Source: a plasmid. From it: a stretch of 64,000 bases of DNA. The translations under genes and the position numbers were made by a program. Below are positions 46,248 to 57,072 of the stretch, piece after piece. Each line of letters begins with the position of its first letter. Positions within the stretch are counted from its first letter, which is position 1. The stretch lies in the sequence record NZ_CP020440.2. One strand, written 5' to 3'. The notes beneath the pieces were generated by a model. That model was not told the DNA's origin and ran no database searches. It saw nothing but the letters and a program-made list of their open reading frames with translations.

Positions 46248-46925
46248 TCAGGGCGCGATGACCCGCACGCGCTGCACCGTGCCGTCACTGCGCCGCACGG
46301 CCGTCGCCAACCGCTCGGCCAGATGGGTCTGGACGTAGGACGCGTGAAACCGCGACGGCGCCAGCAGGGTCAGGCAGCCGTCCTCGACCGCCGCCTCGGA
46401 CAGGGCGGCGAACCAGCTTTCGAACAGGGTGCGGTCTTCCTCGGCCAGCCGGGCGCAGGCCTGCGCCCACAGCCCCTCGCCCCGGGGCAGGACGGGCCGG
46501 GCCGGCCGCAGCGGCACGACATTGTCCGCGCCGGCCCCCTGCCCCGCCAGCCGGGCCACGAAATCGGGCCCGATGTTCTCCCACTCGGGCCGCGTGTCCA
46601 GCATGATCCGCTCCAGCTCCAGCCCCAGGACCGACACCCGCCCCCGGGCCCCCGGCTGGCGCACGGCGATCCAGCCCATCGCCCGCAGCCGCGCCATCTC
46701 GCGCTTGACGGTGCGCTCGTCCACGCTCCACAGCCGCGCGATCTCGCGCTGGCCCACGGTCAACTCGTCCCGCTGCCAGTTGTAGCGGCTGGTGATCAGC
46801 GCCATCAGCCGCAGGACCAGCCGCTGGCGATGCTTGTCGCCGGCCAGGGCATGGGCCATCATGGCTGACAGGATATCGTATTTCTTGGCCGCGGCCTCAC
46901 GCCCGACGGCTCGTATCACCTGCAT
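46248..46925 (-). CDS. Candidate replication initiator: N-terminal HTH plus C-terminal DnaA N-terminal-like domain
   Basis: The HTH is LTVGQREIARLWSVDERTVKREMARLRAMGW. The C-terminal LWAQACARLAEEDRTLFESWFAALSEAAVEDGCLTLLAPSRFHASYVQTHL parallels DnaA domain I (LWQQCLARLQ...LALYAPNRFVLDWV). It is divergent from repA across a repeat-rich intergenic region. Confidence 0.55.
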   Translation of the reverse strand: MQVIRAVGREAAAKKYDILSAMMAHALAGDKHRQRLVLRLMALITSRYNWQRDELTVGQREIARLWSVDERTVKREMARLRAMGWIAVRQPGARGRVSVLGLELERIMLDTRPEWENIGPDFVARLAGQGAGADNVVPLRPARPVLPRGEGLWAQACARLAEEDRTLFESWFAALSEAAVEDGCLTLLAPSRFHASYVQTHLAERLATAVRRSDGTVQRVRVIAP

Positions 46926-47405
46926 CTCGCTCCTGCCCCCGGGGACCGCCCGGCTGCTTCATGACCCGGGTGCTGACCCCGGTACTGCCCTGGGAGGCCC
47001 GCGCCGGTCTTTGCCGCCAACGCTTTTCGTCATCCCTGCCCCATTTGCGTCCTGTTTGACGATTCTGTCAAGCGGCCCCGGGCCGTGGCACCGAAAACCC
47101 TGGATGACTCCCCCAAACCTGATTGCAAAATCGGTATTAATGGTATTGGGGGACAGGCAGGATGACACCCTATTCCGCCGCTTTGTCCCCCATTCCGCTG
47201 CGCGGGCGCCATTTTGCGTCCCCCAGTTCCGGCTCCGCCTCGACGGCTGGCCAGGCAACGCGCGTTGCCGGCGATTCGCGGGCCAGGCCGCGTTTTCAGG
47301 GCCTTGGGGAGAATTCCTGCTCTGATGAAAAATGGTTTTTGCCAGAAAGGCAAATCCGGCGTAAAAGCGGGACAGAAGAAAATTAACGTTCCATGAGACA
47401 GGCAG
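46926..47405. other. Candidate replication origin and divergent-promoter region (lower GC, short direct and inverted repeats)
   Basis: The direct repeats are CCATTTGCGTCC (47041-47052) and CCATTTTGCGTCC (47209-47221), ATTCCGC twice (about 47172 and 47192), and GGTATT twice within GGTATTAATGGTATTGG. An inverted repeat TTTGCCAGAAAGGCAAA lies about 60 nt upstream of repA. Confidence 0.35.
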
Positions 47406-48710
47406 ATGTACACGCACGAAGACCTCGCCCGGCTGCAGGCCCAGTCCCTCAAGATGCAGGGCTGGATCCGGCGCCAGACCTTCAGCCCGGCCAATGAAAA
47501 GACCCTGCGCCGCTTCTCCTCCTGGGAGGTGGCCGAGCTGATCTTCCGGATGAACCAGTCGACCTTCCGCGGCAAGCTCGCCGCCGACCCGAACCTTCCC
47601 CTCGGGGAAGTCGAGGAGGACGGCCGCCAGCGCTGGTTCTCGCTCGACGAGGTGAACGAGCTGCGCCGCCGCATCAAGGTCAACCGCAAAAGCCTGATGC
47701 CGCCCCGCCCCGAGGGCAAGCGCGCCTTCCGCGCCGCCATCGCGAACTTCAAGGGCGGTGCCGGCAAGTCGACCGTGGCGCTGCACTTCGCCCATGCCGC
47801 GGCGCTCGATGGCTACCGCGTCCTCCTGGTGGACTTCGACCCCCAGGCGACGCTGTCGCACAGCATGGGCCTGACCGACGTGGGCGAGGATCATACCGTC
47901 TGGGGCATCATGGCCCGCGACCTCGAACGCGAAACCGACCGCATGAACGCCGTCGCCCGCGGCGCCGAATCGGGCACCGCCCTGCCCCAGCGCAAGCTGC
48001 CCGCCTCGATCCGCGACATGGGTCTCGGCACGCTGCGGCCTGCGGACTTCATCAAGCCCACCGCCTGGCCCACCATCGACATCATCCCCAGCTGCGCCAA
48101 CGCCGCCTTCGTCGAGTTCGCCAGCGCCCAGTACCGCCACCTGAACCCGGAATGGACCTTCTTCGGCGCGGTCTCGCGCTTCCTCGACAGCCTCGCGGAC
48201 GATGCCTACGACCTGATCCTCTTCGACTGCCCGCCGGCCATCGGCTACCAGTCGATGAACGCGGTCTTTGCGGCCGACATGCTCTATATCCCCTCGGGTC
48301 CCGGCTACTGGGAATACGACTCGACCACCAGCTTCATCGGCCAGCTCTCCGAGGCGCTCGAGGATCTCTCGCACGGGTTCGAGAACTTCCCCACGGGGAA
48401 GATCCGCCTGCCCAAGGCCTTCGCCGATGTCCGCTTCCTGATGACGCGGTTCGAGCCCTCGAACGAATTGCACCAGGCCATGCTCGGCGCCTTCCGCCAG
48501 GTCTTCGGCGATCGCATGGCCGAGCACCCGATCGAGCTGACCCGCGCCGTCGAGCAATCCGGCCGCTTCCTCAGCTCCATCTACGAGATCGACTACCGCG
48601 AGATGACCCGCGGCACGTGGCGACGCGCCCGCGCGACCTTCGATCAGGCCTATGAGGAGTTCAAGTCCCACGCCATCGCAGCCTGGGCCAAGCTGGAGGA
48701 TCAGGCATGA
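47406..48710 (+). CDS. repA: Partition ATPase ParA/RepA with about 110-aa N-terminal HTH extension
   Basis: The deviant Walker A is NFKGGAGKSTVALH, followed by VLLVDFDPQATL, in a 434-aa protein. The N-terminal extension is typical of repABC-type RepA. Confidence 0.85.
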   Translation: MYTHEDLARLQAQSLKMQGWIRRQTFSPANEKTLRRFSSWEVAELIFRMNQSTFRGKLAADPNLPLGEVEEDGRQRWFSLDEVNELRRRIKVNRKSLMPPRPEGKRAFRAAIANFKGGAGKSTVALHFAHAAALDGYRVLLVDFDPQATLSHSMGLTDVGEDHTVWGIMARDLERETDRMNAVARGAESGTALPQRKLPASIRDMGLGTLRPADFIKPTAWPTIDIIPSCANAAFVEFASAQYRHLNPEWTFFGAVSRFLDSLADDAYDLILFDCPPAIGYQSMNAVFAADMLYIPSGPGYWEYDSTTSFIGQLSEALEDLSHGFENFPTGKIRLPKAFADVRFLMTRFEPSNELHQAMLGAFRQVFGDRMAEHPIELTRAVEQSGRFLSSIYEIDYREMTRGTWRRARATFDQAYEEFKSHAIAAWAKLEDQA

Positions 48711-49816
48711 GCCGCAAGCGCCGCATGTTCGACATCGAGATGCCCGACGAGCCCGCCCCCGACGTCCCCGCGGGGAAGGTCGAGCCCGCCCCCGAGGCCG
48801 AGCCGCCGCGTCGCGGTCCCATGGCCACCGCGATCAGCGAAACCGCCGAATCCAGTCGCGAGCGCGCCCGGCTTGAAGCCGATATCCGGGCTGAGAACGA
48901 CGCGCTGGCCGCCGAGCATGTCCGGCTGAAGCGGGCAGGGCTCATCACCGACCTGATCCCGGTCGACGTCATCGACACCCAGAAGCTGATCCGCGACCGC
49001 GCGCCCGGTCCCGATTTCGAACTGGCCGAGCTGGTCGCCTCGATCCGCGAGATCGGCCTTTCGAACCCGATCCGCGTCGAGCCCGCCGGGAACGGCCGCT
49101 ACGAACTGATCCAGGGCTGGCGCCGCTTGTCGGCCTATCGCCAGCTGCTCGAGGAGACCGGCGATGCCGAGACCTGGGGCCGGATCCCGGCCGGCATCGC
49201 GGCGCGCGGCGACGAACTGGAACGCCTCTACCGCCGCATGGTGGACGAGAACCTGGTGCGCAAGGACATCTCCTTCGCCGAGATGGCCCAGCTCGCCCTG
49301 CATTACGCCATGGACCCGCTGACGCCCGAGAACGACCCCGAGAAGGCCGTGGCGATCCTGTTCAAGTCCGCCGGCTATCAGAAGCGCAGCTACATCCGCA
49401 GCTTCATCCGCGTGGTCGAGGCGCTGGACGGCGTGCTCCTCTACATGGCCGAGATCCCGCGCGCCCTGGGCCTGGCGCTGGCGGCGCGCCTGGACGAGGT
49501 GCCGGGCCTGGTCGGCGCCATCCGGGCCGAGCTCAAGGACTGGGACACCCGCAGCATCAAGGACGAACTTGATCTGCTCCGCCGCTTCGCAGGGCAGGGC
49601 GAGGACGCGGTCACCGCGCCCGCTCCCAAGGCCAAGTCCCCGACCATCCCCGCGGGGAAGGCGCGCACCACCTTCCAGATCGCGCGCCCCCAGGGCAGTG
49701 CCAAATGCACCGCCGCCAACGGCCGGCTCGAGATCCGGCTGCCGCGCGACTTCTCGGCCATCGACCGCCGCAAGCTTGAGGCCGCCGTCCGCTCCATGCT
49801 GGAAAGCCTCGAGTGA
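48707..49816 (+). CDS. repB: Partition protein ParB/RepB
   Basis: The ParB box is IRVEPAGNGRYELIQGWRRLSAY. Its ATG overlaps the repA stop. Confidence 0.8.
   Translation: MSRKRRMFDIEMPDEPAPDVPAGKVEPAPEAEPPRRGPMATAISETAESSRERARLEADIRAENDALAAEHVRLKRAGLITDLIPVDVIDTQKLIRDRAPGPDFELAELVASIREIGLSNPIRVEPAGNGRYELIQGWRRLSAYRQLLEETGDAETWGRIPAGIAARGDELERLYRRMVDENLVRKDISFAEMAQLALHYAMDPLTPENDPEKAVAILFKSAGYQKRSYIRSFIRVVEALDGVLLYMAEIPRALGLALAARLDEVPGLVGAIRAELKDWDTRSIKDELDLLRRFAGQGEDAVTAPAPKAKSPTIPAGKARTTFQIARPQGSAKCTAANGRLEIRLPRDFSAIDRRKLEAAVRSMLESLE
48765..48778. repeat. 14-bp palindrome TCCCCGCGGGGAAG, copy 1 (inside the 5' end of repB)
   Basis: Direct read: gacgTCCCCGCGGGGAAGgtcg. Confidence 0.4.
49647..49660. 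repeat. 14-bp palindrome TCCCCGCGGGGAAG, copy 2 (inside the 3' end of repB)
   Basis: Direct read: ccaTCCCCGCGGGGAAGgcg. Confidence 0.4.
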
Positions 49817-49818
49817 CC

Positions 49819-49832
49819 TTCCCCGCGGGGAA
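49819..49832. repeat. Palindrome copy 3, extended to a perfect 16-mer CTTCCCCGCGGGGAAG, 2 nt after the repB stop
   Basis: Direct read: tgacCTTCCCCGCGGGGAAGccg. Confidence 0.4.
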
Positions 49833-49867
49833 GCCGCCCCCAGTGCTTCTTTCTTGCCCAAATATCC

Positions 49868-49886
49868 CGCAGGGGCTCCGGGGGAC
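49868..49886 (+). terminator. Perfect hairpin GGGGGAC-gcgaa-GTCCCCC downstream of repB, no U-tract
   Basis: Direct read. It is a possible repAB terminator. Confidence 0.3.
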
Positions 49887-50021
49887 GCGAAGTCCCCCGT
49901 GCGGCCGCGCCAAAGGTGGAATGTTCCTGTTATGTTCCGTTCGTCCGCGCTTTGCCTTCACCGGGCGGACGTGCTAGCCCGGCCTGAAAACCGGGCGACG
50001 CCGGGGCAGGGACAACGGGCG

Positions 50022-50930
50022 ATGGCAGGCAGGATCAGCGGGGCGATAGACCTGGGCGGCACCAAGATCGAGGCGCGGCTTTTCGACGCGGGCTTCGCCA
50101 CGCTCGACCGCCGTCGCCTGCCGACGCCCACCCAGGATTTCGGCGCCCTGATCGAGGCCGTCGCCGCCCAGGTCGCCTGGCTGGAGGGGCTGGGGGGCGC
50201 GGCGCTGCCCATCGGCATCTCGATCGCCGGGGTGATCGACCCCGACACCGGCCGCGCCACCGCCGCGAACCTGCCGGTCTCCGGGCGCGACCTTGGCCAT
50301 GCCTTGCGCGGGCGGCTGGGCCGCGATCTGCCCTTGATGAACGACTGCACAGCTTTTGCCTGGTCCGAGGCCCATGGCGGCGCGGGGCAGGGGGCGCGTT
50401 CGGTCCTGGGGCTGGTGCTGGGCACCGGGGTCGGGGCCGGCATGGTGCTGGACGGCCGGCCCATGCACCGCGCCTCGGGCCTTGCCGTCGAGATCGGACA
50501 TATGGGCGTGCCGGCCCGGGCGCTGGCGCGGCATGGGTTGCCACTGTGGGATTGCGGCTGCGGCCAGGCCGGATGCTATGAGAATTATGTCTCGGGACCC
50601 GGGCTGGCCCGCATCGCGGCCTGGGCCGGGATCGCGCAGACCGACCCCGCAGCGCTGGCCGGCGATCCGGCGGCCGCGCCGGCGCTGGCGATCTGGACCG
50701 ATCTGGCGGCCGAGATGCTGTACGACGCGCAGCTGATGCTGGACCCGCAGGTGATCGTCCTGGGTGGCGGGTTGTCGAACATGGCGGGCATTGCCGACCG
50801 TCTGGCCCAGGCGCTGGACGGGCGCCGGCTGGGCGGCGTGCGGGCGCCCGACCTGAGGCTGGCGCAGCATGGCGACAGTTCCGGCGCGCGCGGCGCGGCG
50901 CTGATGGCCTGCGGGGTGGGCCCGTGCTGA
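50022..50930 (+). CDS. ROK-family sugar kinase (N-acetylglucosamine kinase-like, no N-terminal HTH)
   Basis: This is the internal Met of ORF 49569..50930, MAGRISGAIDLGGTKIEARLFD..., with the ROK CxCGxxGCxE-type zinc motif DCGCGQAGCYENYVSG. Confidence 0.75.
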   Translation: MAGRISGAIDLGGTKIEARLFDAGFATLDRRRLPTPTQDFGALIEAVAAQVAWLEGLGGAALPIGISIAGVIDPDTGRATAANLPVSGRDLGHALRGRLGRDLPLMNDCTAFAWSEAHGGAGQGARSVLGLVLGTGVGAGMVLDGRPMHRASGLAVEIGHMGVPARALARHGLPLWDCGCGQAGCYENYVSGPGLARIAAWAGIAQTDPAALAGDPAAAPALAIWTDLAAEMLYDAQLMLDPQVIVLGGGLSNMAGIADRLAQALDGRRLGGVRAPDLRLAQHGDSSGARGAALMACGVGPC

Positions 50931-52021
50931 TCGCGGCCGACCGGATCTGGCAGGAGGGCGCGCTGGTCCCGGGCCTGGCCGTGGAGACCGACGGCCGCCG
51001 CGTCCTGGCCCTGCGTCCGCTGGGCGCCGACCGGCCCGACCATCATGTGCCGCTGCTGGTGCCGGGCTGCACCGACCTGCAGGTGAACGGCGGCGGCGGT
51101 GTCCTGTTCAACGCCGACCCGACGCCCGAAGGGATCGCCGCCATTGCCGCCGCCCATCATCGGCTGGGGGTGGCGCAGATCCTGCCCACGGTCATCACCG
51201 ACGCGCCCGAGGTGCTGGAGGCCGCCGCCGATGCGGTGATCGCCTGCCGGGACGCGCCGGGCATCGCCGGCATCCATATCGAGGGGCCCCATATCGCCCC
51301 CGAGCGGCGCGGCACGCATGAGGCGCGCTTCATCCGCCCGCTGGATGCCCGCACGCTGGCCGTGCTGCGCCGGCTGCGCGCCGCCGGCGTGCCGGTGCTG
51401 CTGACGCTTGCGCCCGAGACCGCCGATCCGACCCTGCTGGCCGAGGCGAAGGCCCTGGGCGTGGTGCTCTCGGCCGGGCACAGCATGGCCGACGCCGCCC
51501 AGGCGCGCGCCGCGCTGGCGCAAGGCGTCACCATGGCCACCCATCTGTTCAACGCCATGCCGCAGATGACCGCCCGCGCGCCGGGGCTGATCGCCGCCGC
51601 GCTGCTGTCGGGCCTGTGGTGCGGGCTGATCGCGGACGGCATCCATGTCTCGGCCGAGATGCTGGCGATCGCGCTGCGGGTCGCGGGGGATCGCTGCTTT
51701 CTGGTCTCGGACGCGATGCCGACGGTCGGGGGGCCGGACCGCTTCAGCCTGTACGGGCGCGAGATCGCGGTCCGCGACGGCAGGCTGGTCAATGCCGAGG
51801 GCGCGCTGGCCGGCGCCCATCTGGACCTGCCGCAGGCCATGCGGCGCCTGGTCGCGCTGACCGGGGCCAGCCCTGGGACCGCCATCGCCATGGCGACCGA
51901 CCGGCCGCGCCGCGCGATGGGGCTGGCGCCGCTTGCTGTCGCGCCGGGGACCGCGCTGCGCGACCTGCTGGCGCTGGACCACGACTTGCACATGGTGCCG
52001 CTGCCGGGACGGGACGCATGA
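50924..52021 (+). CDS. nagA: N-acetylglucosamine-6-phosphate deacetylase
   Basis: The GTG start overlaps the nagK stop. The protein contains [16 protein letters not shown] and the amidohydrolase metal ligands, and is 365 aa. Confidence 0.85.
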
Positions 52022-53022
52022 TCCCGGTCTTTGTCGTCACCGGCTTTCTGAGGGCGGGCAAGACCACGCTGGTCAACCGCCTTCTGGCCGCCCATCCCGA
52101 TACGGCCCTCATCATCAATGAATTCGGCGCGGTCGCGGTCGATCACCATCTGGTCCGGCAGGGCCGCGAACGGGTGCTGACCAGCACCGGCTGTATCTGC
52201 TGCACGGCGGGCAGCGACCTGCGCAGCACGCTGGACGAGTTGCTGCGCGGCCGCCGCGACGGCAGCCTGCCCGGCTATGCCCGGGTGCTGGTGGAAACCA
52301 CGGGTCTGGCCGATCCGGCCCCCATCGTGAACAGCCTGATCCCGGGCGGCCTGCCGGCTGTGGCGCTGCGCGACCATGCGGTGGCGCGGGCGTTCCGGCT
52401 GTCCTCGGTCATCACCGTGGCGGATGCGCAGGGGATTGCGGCGCTGGTCGCGCGCCACGCGCAGGCGCTGCGCCAGGTGGCCTTTGCCGACCATCTGGTG
52501 CTGAGCCACACCGACCTTGGCCCGCCGGGCGATCTGTCGGCGCTCACGGCGATCAACCCCGGCCTGCGGGTCCATGACGCGGGCGATCCCGCCTTCGACC
52601 CGGGCCTGCTGCTGGCCCCCGGCAGCTATGACGCGGCGGGGAAGGGCGCGGCGCTGGCGGGCTGGCTGGCCGAGGCGAAGGGCGCCTCCGGTCCGCGGCA
52701 TGGCGGCATCGCCGCCCATACGCTGGCGGCGGATGCGCTCCTGGATCGGGCGCGGCTGATGGATTTCCTGGCAGGCCTTGTCGCGGGCGGGCAGGTGCTG
52801 CGCGCCAAGGGGCTGGTCGCGGTCGCCGATGATCCGGGCCGCCCGCTGGTCGTCCATGCCGTGGGCCACCGGCTTTATCCCCCCGTCATGGCCGAGGCCT
52901 GGCCCGAGGGCCCGGCCGGCTCGCGGCTGGTCGTCATCGGCGAGGGGCTGGACGGCGCGCTGCTGCAGCGGCGCTTTGCCGCGCTGGCGGGGCCGGCGCG
53001 CCTGCCGGGGCTTGGCGGCTGA
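52018..53022 (+). CDS. COG0523/CobW-family G3E GTPase (putative metallochaperone)
   Basis: This is the internal Met of ORF 51616..53022, [23 protein letters not shown], the Walker A, with a GCICC metal-binding motif. Its ATG overlaps the nagA stop (ATGA). Confidence 0.8.
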   Translation: MIPVFVVTGFLRAGKTTLVNRLLAAHPDTALIINEFGAVAVDHHLVRQGRERVLTSTGCICCTAGSDLRSTLDELLRGRRDGSLPGYARVLVETTGLADPAPIVNSLIPGGLPAVALRDHAVARAFRLSSVITVADAQGIAALVARHAQALRQVAFADHLVLSHTDLGPPGDLSALTAINPGLRVHDAGDPAFDPGLLLAPGSYDAAGKGAALAGWLAEAKGASGPRHGGIAAHTLAADALLDRARLMDFLAGLVAGGQVLRAKGLVAVADDPGRPLVVHAVGHRLYPPVMAEAWPEGPAGSRLVVIGEGLDGALLQRRFAALAGPARLPGLGG

Positions 53023-53098: not shown

Positions 53099-54382
53099 AT
53101 GCGCATTTCATTCAGGCATTCGGTCGGCTTTGCGGCGGTGGCGTTGATGCTCGCCTCGTGCGGGGTGGGGAACTATGGTCCCGGTCCGCGCGGCGTGGCC
53201 CCGCAAAGCCAGGAGATCAAATGGGGCCGCAACCAGAACCCGCCCCCCGCCAAGGTCGTGGGGCTGAACGCCTGGGTCGCGAATTTCAAGGGTCAGGCGC
53301 GGGGGCAGGGGATCAGCGACCAGACGCTGGAATTCGCCTTCCGCGACGTGGTCTACAACCCCGAGGTGGTGAAGCGCAGCCAGAACCAGGCCGAGTTCAA
53401 GAAATCCCTGTGGGAGTATCTGGAAAACGCCGTGTCGGAAAAGCGGCAGACCAACGGGCGCGCAGCGCTGGGGCAATACGGCGGCGTGCTGAACGCGGTC
53501 GAGGCGCGCTACGGCGTCGACAAGGAGGTCGTCACCGCCGTCTGGGGCATGGAATCGACCTATGGCGAACGCCGCGGCGACCTGCCGCTGATCGAGGCGC
53601 TGTCCACCCTGTCCTATGAGGGGTATCGCGGCGACTTCTTCCGCAGCCAACTGATCGCCGCGCTGAAGATCCTGCAGGCGGGCGACATCGACCCCGCGCA
53701 TATGACCGGCAGCTGGGCGGGCGCGATGGGGCACACCCAGTTCATCCCGACCACCTATCTGGCCTATGCCGCCGATTTCAACGGCGACGGGCGGCGCGAC
53801 ATCTGGTCGAACGACCCGAGCGATTCCCTGGCCTCGACGGCGAACTACCTGGCGAAATCGGGCTGGCAGCGCGGCCTGCCGGCGGCGGTCGAGGTGGCGC
53901 TGCCCGCAGGCTTCGACATGGGGCTGGCGGGCAAGGGCAAGCGCCGCTCGGTCGCGGAGTGGCAGTCGCTGGGCATCCGGCAGGCCAGTTCCCGGCCGCT
54001 GCCGCCGGCGGGGGCCTCGGCGGAACTCCTGGTGCCGGGCGGGCGCGACGGGGCGGCCTTCCTGATCACGCGCAACTTCCATGCCATCCTGCGCTATAAC
54101 AACGCCGACAGCTATGCGCTGGCGGTGGCGCATCTGGCCGACCGGCTGAAAGGCTATCCGGGGCTGACCAACCCCTGGCCCGCCAGCCACCCCGGCCTGC
54201 GCATCGAGAGCCGCAAGGAGATGCAGGAGCTGCTGACCGCGCGCGGCTTCGACACGCAGGGGGTGGACGGCAACGTCGGCTCGAACACCACGAACGCGAT
54301 CCGGGCCTATCAGCAGTCGCGCGGCCTGCCCGTGACCGGAGAGCCGAGCGCCGAGCTGCTGGCCCAGCTGCGCCGGGGCTAG
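53099..54382 (+). CDS. Lytic murein transglycosylase lipoprotein (MltB family) with C-terminal peptidoglycan-binding domain
   Basis: This is the internal Met of ORF 52778..54382, MRISFRHSVGFAAVALMLASCG, with a lipobox, followed by VWGMESTYGE and the C-terminal PG-binding repeat LLTARGFDTQGVDGNVGSNTTNAIRAYQQSRGLPVTG. Confidence 0.8.
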   Translation: MRISFRHSVGFAAVALMLASCGVGNYGPGPRGVAPQSQEIKWGRNQNPPPAKVVGLNAWVANFKGQARGQGISDQTLEFAFRDVVYNPEVVKRSQNQAEFKKSLWEYLENAVSEKRQTNGRAALGQYGGVLNAVEARYGVDKEVVTAVWGMESTYGERRGDLPLIEALSTLSYEGYRGDFFRSQLIAALKILQAGDIDPAHMTGSWAGAMGHTQFIPTTYLAYAADFNGDGRRDIWSNDPSDSLASTANYLAKSGWQRGLPAAVEVALPAGFDMGLAGKGKRRSVAEWQSLGIRQASSRPLPPAGASAELLVPGGRDGAAFLITRNFHAILRYNNADSYALAVAHLADRLKGYPGLTNPWPASHPGLRIESRKEMQELLTARGFDTQGVDGNVGSNTTNAIRAYQQSRGLPVTGEPSAELLAQLRRG

Positions 54383-56400: not shown

Positions 56401-56817
56401 CTATCCGGCCCCTTGCGCGAAGGGATCGACCAGCCGGCAGCCGGTCGGCCGGAAATCGGCGGTGTTGCCGGTGACCACGGCCGCGTCATGCGCAAGCGCG
56501 GTCGCCGCGATCAGCAGGTCGGCCCCGGCGTGGCCCAGCCGGGCGGAAAGCTGGCCCCAGAGCAGCGCCTCGGCCGCGCTGAAGGGCAGCAGGCGGTCGG
56601 AAAACAGCGTGACGGTGCGCGTCAGCCAATCGCGCAGGTCGCGGGCAAAGGGCGGGTTCTGCGATTCCTGGCGGACGATGCCGCGCTCGATCTCGCCCAA
56701 GGTGACGACGGAGAGATAGAGCGCGGTGTCGTCCTGCCGGGCCAGCCAGGCGGCGACCGCCGGGCTGCGTTCGGGGCGGCGCAGCGCCGACAGGACATTG
56801 GTATCCAGGATCAGCAT
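56401..56817 (-). CDS. vapC: Type II toxin VapC (PIN-domain ribonuclease)
   Basis: MLILDTNVLSALRRPERSPAVAAWL gives the PIN acidic residue D6 and the following motif, and TGNTADF is the C-terminal PIN motif. Confidence 0.85.
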   Translation of the reverse strand: MLILDTNVLSALRRPERSPAVAAWLARQDDTALYLSVVTLGEIERGIVRQESQNPPFARDLRDWLTRTVTLFSDRLLPFSAAEALLWGQLSARLGHAGADLLIAATALAHDAAVVTGNTADFRPTGCRLVDPFAQGAG

Positions 56818-57072
56818 TCAGAAGCTGACGTCGCGCGGGGCCACCCAGGCGCGCCCGGAATCGGGGCTCAGGTCGGGGCCCGGAAAGCTGAGGAGGTGGG
56901 CGGCGAAGGAGCCGCGGTTTTCCTGCGTCGCGGCCAGCATCCGGGCGTAGTCCGCGGCGGCCAGCACCACGACGGCGGGCTTGCCGCGCCGCGTCACCTG
57001 CTGCGGCTGGCCGGCAAGCGCCGCATCGACCACGGCCGAAAAGCGGTTCTTGGCATCCTGAAGCGTCCACAT
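56818..57072 (-). CDS. vapB: Type II antitoxin, Phd/YefM family
   Basis: MWTLQDAKNRFSAVVDAALAGQPQQVTRRGKPAVVVLAAADYARM. Its stop abuts the vapC start. Confidence 0.8.
   Translation of the reverse strand: MWTLQDAKNRFSAVVDAALAGQPQQVTRRGKPAVVVLAAADYARMLAATQENRGSFAAHLLSFPGPDLSPDSGRAWVAPRDVSF

Follow-up and report, generated by a model that had tools for sequence, protein, structure and literature searches.

The nagK-nagA-COG0523 locus

The window analyzed here is a 64,000-nucleotide stretch of plasmid record NZ_CP020440.2, read on one strand from 5' to 3', and the element under study is a gene for a COG0523-family GTPase that lies directly behind nagA in the segment from 50,022 to 53,022. The region is 97-98% identical to Paracoccus yeei plasmids, and ARC35045.1 (COG0523) and ARC35044.1 (NagA) from a P. 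yeei plasmid are the exact window proteins. Comparisons of sequence and gene order support a functional tie between the clade of this GTPase and the amino-sugar operon in which it sits, and NagA is the foremost candidate for its client. The genes and motifs that bear on this proposal are listed below.

50022..50930, + strand: ROK-family sugar kinase, NagK-like, 302 amino acids, ATG to TGA; Pfam ROK 191 bits
50924..52021, + strand: NagA, N-acetylglucosamine-6-phosphate deacetylase, 365 amino acids, GTG to TGA; Amidohydro_1
52018..53022, + strand: COG0523 protein (G3E P-loop GTPase), 334 amino acids, ATG to TGA; cobW and CobW_C domains
52051..52053, + strand: codon 12 (AGG, Arg) in the P-loop of the COG0523 gene; private G12R, with GGG one base away
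52192..52203, + strand: CxCC metal motif of the COG0523 protein (C59-I-C61-C62), intact
53099..54382, + strand: lipoprotein lytic murein transglycosylase, MltB_2 type (SLT_2 and PG_binding_1)

The kinase stop and the nagA start overlap by 7 nucleotides (nt; GTGCTGA), and the nagA TGA and the COG0523 ATG overlap by 4 nt (ATGA). A sister P. yeei plasmid is annotated in RefSeq with identical gene calls and overlaps. The 4-nt ATGA overlap is the commonest class of overlap in bacterial operons and is unremarkable alone. The nagK, nagA, and COG0523 genes of the original prediction, together with the motifs it described, are all present at the positions given for them. Its description of the three as translationally coupled stands as far as the two overlaps go; they suggest coupling and co-translation. 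A terminator-like hairpin at the nagA/COG0523 junction (52010-52026) has a 5-bp stem, and there are two such sites in the region versus 0.9 expected, so it was not counted. The mltB gene starts 77 nt past the COG0523 stop, no terminator is predicted in the gap, and the two genes are probably co-transcribed. Its product scores 360.1 bits against TIGR02283 (cut-off 248.45) and 369.7 bits against SLT_2 and has PG_binding_1, which identifies it as MltB-type. These genes are best explained as one operon for amino-sugar use and cell-wall recycling, made up of the ROK N-acetylglucosamine-kinase-like gene, nagA, the COG0523 gene, and probably mltB, adjoining a partition module.

The window NagA scores below the equivalog cut-offs of TIGR00221 (200.9 versus 225.65 bits) and PRK11170 (217.4 versus 483), and solved NagA structures match it with E-values of 5.7e-52 to 1e-27. 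Residues Q53, N55, E120, H132, H186, H207, H241, and D263 are invariant in 21 orthologues and align to the motifs of the solved NagA chains. This set corresponds to the mononuclear metal site of the E. coli type, in which QxN replaces HxH, the metal ligands are one Glu and two His, and an Asp (catalytic) and a His (polarizing) complete the site. The earlier view of NagA as a metal enzyme is thus upheld, all of these metal and catalytic residues being kept. The best NCBIfam match of the ROK kinase is N-acetylglucosamine kinase (204.7 bits versus a cut-off of 380) followed by fructokinase (173), and its translation carries the motif GH...CGCGQAGCYE (CxCGxxGC). The CxCGxxGC motif of the ROK family binds zinc.

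The COG0523 protein and its G12R substitution

Both family domains are present in the COG0523 protein. PF02492 (cobW/HypB/UreG) scores 110.5 bits against a cut-off of 20.7 over residues 3-171, and PF07683 (CobW_C) scores 73.7 bits against a cut-off of 22 over residues 231-323. The CxCC motif between G2 and G3 (TGCICC; C59, C61, and C62) is intact and conserved across the alignment, and the GCICC metal motif named in the original prediction occupies residues 58-62. G3 is canonical (VETTGLADP). G4 reads SHTD versus TKTD, and T[RH]TD is found throughout the Rhodobacterales clade.

The Walker A string GFLRAGKTT, as first described, is present at residues 9-17, but it is not the family motif. It departs from the canonical GFLG-x-GK[TS]T (GxxGxGK[ST]) and still fits the generic GxxxxGK[ST]. 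The departure is a single-allele G12R substitution at a position where each of the 119 examined homologues, 15 further P. yeei alleles included, has Gly. NCBI and Logan sources alike (2 contigs) record the exact G12R sequence, and an assembly error is accordingly less probable. We give about even weight to the proposal that the window gene is a crippled allele, in which G12R impairs the GTPase cycle and the function of the clade, whatever it is, is weakened or lost in this strain. The occurrence of Arg only in ARC35045.1/WP_080620067.1 argues for this proposal. The reading frame is intact, the generic Walker A motif is satisfied, and nucleotide binding may persist by analogy with Ras G13 variants, all of which argue against it. 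By our alignment of the motifs, Arg12 takes the position of Gly13 of the Ras P-loop, and by this analogy the likely effect would be an altered GTPase cycle rather than lost nucleotide binding.

COG0523 phylogeny and Zur boxes

COG0523 relatives were collected by a search of 5.8 billion proteins and placed in a neighbor-joining tree. The window GTPase falls within a monophyletic short clade of 15 sequences (318-351 amino acids) whose named members are all Paracoccus. The short clade was found only in P. yeei records of the plasmid collection searched. Its sister is a long Rhodobacterales clade (346-395 amino acids, mostly 355-373), which holds its nearest relatives at 57-62% identity. Most long-clade members have a His-rich linker, HDHGHGGHFHDLNRHG, that is found in none of the short-clade proteins; the inter-domain linker of the window protein is AEAKGASGPRHGG in place of the HDHGHGGHFHDLNRHG of the long clade. 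A C-terminal LPGLGG is present in 11 of the 15 short-clade proteins (53002-53019 in the window, residues 329-334), whereas long-clade proteins end otherwise (GKPQPFLAMAFQAFK...), and the motif may be a clade-specific docking tail. The tail is missing from P0127 (locus L086, without nagA) but also from P0142 (locus L087, with nagA).

A Zur motif with experimental support in P. denitrificans, GTWAYRWWATAACAT (PMC5387054), was used to look for zinc-responsive control. No match with up to three mismatches occurs anywhere in the 64 kb, which bears out the original statement that no Zur box or regulator gene is recognizable in the cluster. A search for the Zur motif at nine short-clade loci (the window and eight others) found none near the operon. 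The positive controls matched, with perfect Zur boxes at the long-clade loci L088 and L004 and a one-mismatch box at L002. This search of the window and related loci speaks against Zur control of the operon, and the absence of a Zur box near the short-clade operons indicates that the clade has left the Zur regulon. The P. denitrificans member of the long clade sits in a chromosomal zinc-limitation island (L088, 13 kb) that has three perfect Zur boxes and contains a Fur-family regulator, four COG0523 paralogues, ZnuBC-type genes, DUF1007/NicO, a deaminase, and DUF1826. A 124-amino-acid CysRS-like fragment and a HisI (PRA-CH) paralogue are also encoded there.

The stretch 5' of the kinase gene in the window (49817..50021) was examined for a Zur box and a sigma-70-like promoter match, and neither was found. 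Comparison of the upstream regions of six loci by eye, without formal alignment, revealed no obvious shared motif. A perfect palindrome, GTTCTGAC-TGCG-GTCAGAAC, lies just 5' of the ROK gene in L085 (~2720-2740) and L089 (~1070-1090) and is a candidate operator. The window does not contain GTTCTGAC-N4-GTCAGAAC and has an ATGTTCC direct repeat at ~49922-49940 instead.

Conservation of the nagA-COG0523 pair

The nagA gene is immediately upstream of the short-clade COG0523 gene in eight of the nine lineages examined, with stop and start overlapping by 4-10 nt. The paired loci are those of P. yeei, its nearest relative L091, P. laeviglucosivorans (L081), L092, L085, L089, a Paracoccus metagenome-assembled genome (L087), and L090. 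Two further nagA-COG0523 cases are inferred only, from contigs of identical length in both hit tables. The ROK gene is present at every locus long enough to show it. The flanks vary: the downstream neighbor is MltB at some loci and a MoxR-DUF58-VWA cluster at others, and only some loci have a GatZ/KbaZ-like gene separating the kinase gene from nagA. Since the flanks differ while the pair is kept, the pair has stayed together through rearrangements. The COG0523-linked NagA proteins form one NagA sub-clade that is broadly congruent with the COG0523 tree, which points to one origin followed by vertical descent.

The ratio of nonsynonymous to synonymous substitution rates (dN/dS) is 0.19-0.51 for the COG0523 gene, compared with 0.15-0.36 for nagA, 0.20-0.39 for the kinase gene, and 0.10-0.14 for mltB. 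The COG0523 gene is therefore kept by purifying selection that is somewhat looser than that on its neighbors, and these values rule out the short clade as a set of pseudogenes or decaying genes.

The order ROK, GatZ-like, NagA, sometimes with CutC, is found at many metagenomic loci. This arrangement is widespread without any COG0523 gene, and the operon is therefore older and the GTPase gene a late insertion. The GatZ/KbaZ-like gene (PF08013) lies between the ROK gene and nagA in L085 (3720-4907), L087 (3672-4907), L089 (2062-3249), and many of L094-L143; P. yeei and P. laeviglucosivorans have no GatZ-like gene. A CutC-family gene (PF03932) is often directly past NagA in the metagenomic operons. 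This GatZ-like/CutC context hints that CutC has a role with amino sugars and that there is an uncharacterized amino-sugar route, in which a sugar-phosphate epimerase may take part.

NagA as a candidate client

The explanation that we favor, tentatively, is that the GTPase is an operon-dedicated accessory that would insert the one catalytic metal of NagA or keep it in place, in the manner of Nha3, in a clade that left Zur control. A Paracoccus-specific clade would have derived from a Zur-regulated, His-rich Rhodobacterales COG0523 lineage, lost both the His-rich linker and Zur control, and become fixed directly behind nagA, so that the GTPase would be made together with NagA and not upon zinc starvation. 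The intact CxCC thiolate site and the GTPase cycle would then load or maintain the NagA metal, with co-expression of the client as proposed for Nha3 and nitrile hydratase. In the window strain G12R may alter or cripple the GTPase cycle. The dedicated NagA metallochaperone of the original prediction gains from the recurrent overlap, the purifying selection, and the NagA metal site; what tells against it is that the pairing is narrow and dispensable, that nothing connects it with zinc limitation, and that adjacency leaves more than one candidate client.

Several findings weigh against this assignment. The pairing is narrow, facultative, and entirely inferential. None of 79 species-representative loci of the nearest COG0523 relatives (33-62% identity) has nagA within 6 kb; the kinase and mltB genes are also absent within 6 kb at these loci, and many carry other COG0523 paralogues instead. 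None of 80 metagenomic nagA loci (38-73% identity; 57 of them with at least 1 kb downstream) has a COG0523 gene in its flanks. Co-occurrence of nagA and COG0523 in other genomes, which the original prediction would lead one to expect, thus recurs in the short-clade lineages and is confined to one Paracoccus sub-clade. This limit probably reflects a single insertion, so the paired loci are not independent, and the adjacency may be inherited from shared ancestry within one genus and not selected. NagA orthologues with 65-74% identity occur without the GTPase (L082, L084, and L093), and the sister Paracoccus lineages L082, L084, and L173 have nagA and no GTPase. Paracoccus sp. CPCC 101403, whose NagA belongs to the same sub-clade, has the order RpiR-SIS-ROK-NagA and no GTPase. 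Since related NagA enzymes do without it, the GTPase is a facultative helper. In P. shanxieyensis (L173) the order is ParA-ParB-HTH-ROK-NagA and the GGTGGTGA junction is kept with no GTPase homology beyond it, which suggests a recent deletion. Conversely, the short contig L086 encodes a GatZ-like protein, the COG0523 protein, and MltB, and has no nagA. The absence of a Zur box means that there is no link to zinc limitation, and the zinc motif of the ROK kinase means that adjacency to nagA does not single out NagA as the client. The protein itself adds two reservations, the non-canonical G4 (SHTD), whose Asp is gone from some short-clade members, and the Arg that the window allele has at an otherwise invariant P-loop glycine.

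The closest competitor to a NagA-dedicated accessory, which we regard as somewhat less probable, is inherited synteny: a general metal-homeostasis COG0523 gene would have moved once from a Zur island to behind nagA in a Paracoccus ancestor and would have a role unrelated to NagA. A pairing confined to one sub-clade fits a single origin, nagA and COG0523 each occur without the other, and the control loci elsewhere show no association between them. Among the matches to the P. denitrificans long-clade protein, none named as P. yeei or P. laeviglucosivorans was a further, long-clade orthologue; this result suggests displacement and not an extra, specialized copy, and the short-clade gene may thus be the orthologue itself, moved to a new place with its general role unchanged. 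Set against inherited synteny, the pair with its tight 4-10 nt overlap outlived several flank rearrangements, the loss of the Zur box and His-rich linker and the gain of the LPGLGG tail point to a changed role, and a zinc-starvation protein would be expected to retain Zur control.

Two further proposals keep a metal-delivery or recycling role and move it away from NagA. It is doubtful that the client is another metalloprotein of the operon, either the ROK kinase through its structural zinc site or, in relatives, the GatZ/KbaZ-like protein. The ROK zinc motif, known to bind zinc in this family, and the ROK gene at every locus long enough to show it are consistent with such a client, as is L086, where the GTPase gene is directly past the GatZ-like gene and there is no nagA. 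The overlapping immediate neighbor, however, is nagA in eight of nine lineages, there is no GatZ-like gene in P. yeei or P. laeviglucosivorans, and ROK-GatZ-NagA operons are widespread without any COG0523. We consider it very unlikely that the GTPase acts with MltB and peptidoglycan recycling as a whole, by comparison with ZigA and SltB/AmpG in Acinetobacter, and not with NagA specifically. The mltB gene does lie 55-80 nt past the GTPase gene in P. yeei, L086, L087, and L091, and loss of SltB or AmpG does suppress the A. baumannii zigA defect under zinc starvation. However, MoxR and not MltB is downstream in five lineages, MltB is a periplasmic lipoprotein whereas the GTPase is cytoplasmic, and mltB is near nagA in L082 without the GTPase, so its proximity is independent synteny.

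Relation to known COG0523 systems

CobW and Nha3 are both encoded beside their client systems. According to a 2024 review, bacterial COG0523 clients are known for these two only, and none is known for any Zur-regulated member (PMC11672702). The premise that ZigA and ZagA deliver zinc to specific client enzymes overstates the literature. Neither the text nor the supplements of a survey of COG0523 subfamilies (Haas 2009) give a NagA or ROK context (PMC2770081). A pairing of NagA with CobW or COG0523 was not found in full-text literature searches: no paper contains both CobW and N-acetylglucosamine-6-phosphate deacetylase, the opened matches to 'COG0523 + nagA' were reference-list entries or author names, and none of the titles and abstracts listed dealt with the pair; the earlier statement that this client relationship has not been described agrees with that result.

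The window GTPase resembles Nha3 and CobW in family, in its cobW and CobW_C domains and CxCC motif, and in its position within a metalloenzyme operon and not a Zur regulon. The proposed logic, co-expression with a client and GTP-dependent metal insertion, would also be the same. It differs in that its candidate client is the mononuclear amidohydrolase NagA, an enzyme not described as a client before, and in that its clade occurs in only a few Paracoccus lineages, whose relatives can do without it. It is distinct from CobW itself, scoring 108.5 bits against the TIGR02475 cut-off of 332.1, with no cob genes adjacent. The G-domain motifs and CxCC are shared with the Zur-regulated COG0523 proteins (ZigA, ZagA, YeiR, and those of the P. 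denitrificans island), but the window has no Zur box, and its GTPase has no His-rich linker, a different C-terminal tail, and an amino-sugar operon context. The score against the ZigA model NF038288 is 85.9 bits versus a cut-off of 600. The closest solved COG0523 structures are those of E. coli YjiA (1NIJ and 4IXM), which has the same two-domain architecture and can be aligned over residues 2-323 (E = 5.6e-23). YjiA is nonetheless distant in sequence (the window protein scores 115 against PRK11537, cut-off 361); no client is known for it, and its gene does not share an operon with nagA. The eukaryotic pair ZNG1-METAP1, with its proven client, is comparable as a concept, one COG0523 protein per hydrolase-type metalloenzyme. 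ZNG1 is induced by zinc limitation and binds METAP1 via a specific motif, whereas neither feature is evident in the window GTPase.

A genetic connection between a COG0523 protein and cell-wall recycling exists in A. baumannii, where a zigA mutant is relieved of its zinc-starvation defect when the lytic transglycosylase SltB or the permease AmpG is lost (PMC11834433). The authors of that work place ZigA in the cell-wall recycling pathway, name no client, and suggest AmpD (PMC11834433). The likeness to the window is that a COG0523 protein is tied to a lytic transglycosylase and to the recycling that feeds NagK and NagA, and the window clusters nagK, nagA, COG0523, and mltB physically. The differences are another COG0523 clade and organism, genetic suppression and not an operon, and no mention of NagA. 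We infer only that under-metallated NagA and an accumulation of N-acetylglucosamine 6-phosphate would fit the zigA genetics. The broader claim is improbable: that NagA is a true COG0523 client by a principle reaching beyond Paracoccus, with the build-up of N-acetylglucosamine 6-phosphate from un-metallated NagA explaining the SltB/AmpG suppression of the zigA defect in zinc-starved A. baumannii. If it were true beyond Paracoccus, this would be the first natural hard-wired pair to reveal a bacterial COG0523 client outside CobW and Nha3.

Clients of bacterial COG0523 proteins are almost unknown, and a COG0523 gene in an enzyme operon without Zur control provides a tractable pair. NagA is easily assayed and has a single, well understood metal site, and natural controls are at hand in the sister species without the GTPase and in the natural G12R allele. 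A real link would add a client from the amidohydrolase superfamily and a concrete hypothesis for the genetic tie between COG0523 and peptidoglycan recycling. Should there be no such link, what remains is an ordinary amino-sugar operon with a relocated paralogue in one genus. Operon-embedded COG0523 proteins are already known; this one is lineage-restricted and has an undescribed candidate client, and the interpretation given in the original prediction is partly supported.

Replicon features around the operon

The operon adjoins the partition module of the replicon. The upstream neighbors (46248-49816) are a DnaA-N-terminal-domain replication protein on the - strand, a RepA/ParA ATPase, and a RepB/ParB protein, followed by the stretch that leads into the kinase gene.

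49817..50021, + strand: intergenic stretch 5' of the ROK kinase gene; contains one TTCCCCGCGGGGAA palindrome at 49819-49832, part of the neighboring partition module

The 14-bp palindrome TTCCCCGCGGGGAA has five copies (47596, 48387, 48764, 49646, and 49819) versus 0.74 expected by chance in 64 kb. All are within or just past the repA/parA and repB/parB genes, with none elsewhere in the 64 kb, and the last is 190 bp 5' of the kinase gene. The set comprises candidate parS centromere sites of the replicon. A hairpin past repB was considered as a terminator and dropped; it is one of the five TTCCCCGCGGGGAA copies confined to the partition module, and a parS-type site is likelier. The order ParA-ParB-(HTH)-ROK-NagA also occurs in P. 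shanxieyensis (L173). Windowed GC skew changes sign near 50 kb of the window. The replicon carries panB and panC and therefore looks like a chromid, not a dispensable plasmid.

The only Rfam match in the window is a cobalamin riboswitch (RF00174, 100 bits) at 1927-2137 on the - strand, ~50 kb from the COG0523 gene and unrelated to it. A VapC/PIN toxin and Phd/YefM antitoxin pair at 56401-57072 (- strand), downstream of an L-cystine-transporter-like gene, fits plasmid maintenance.

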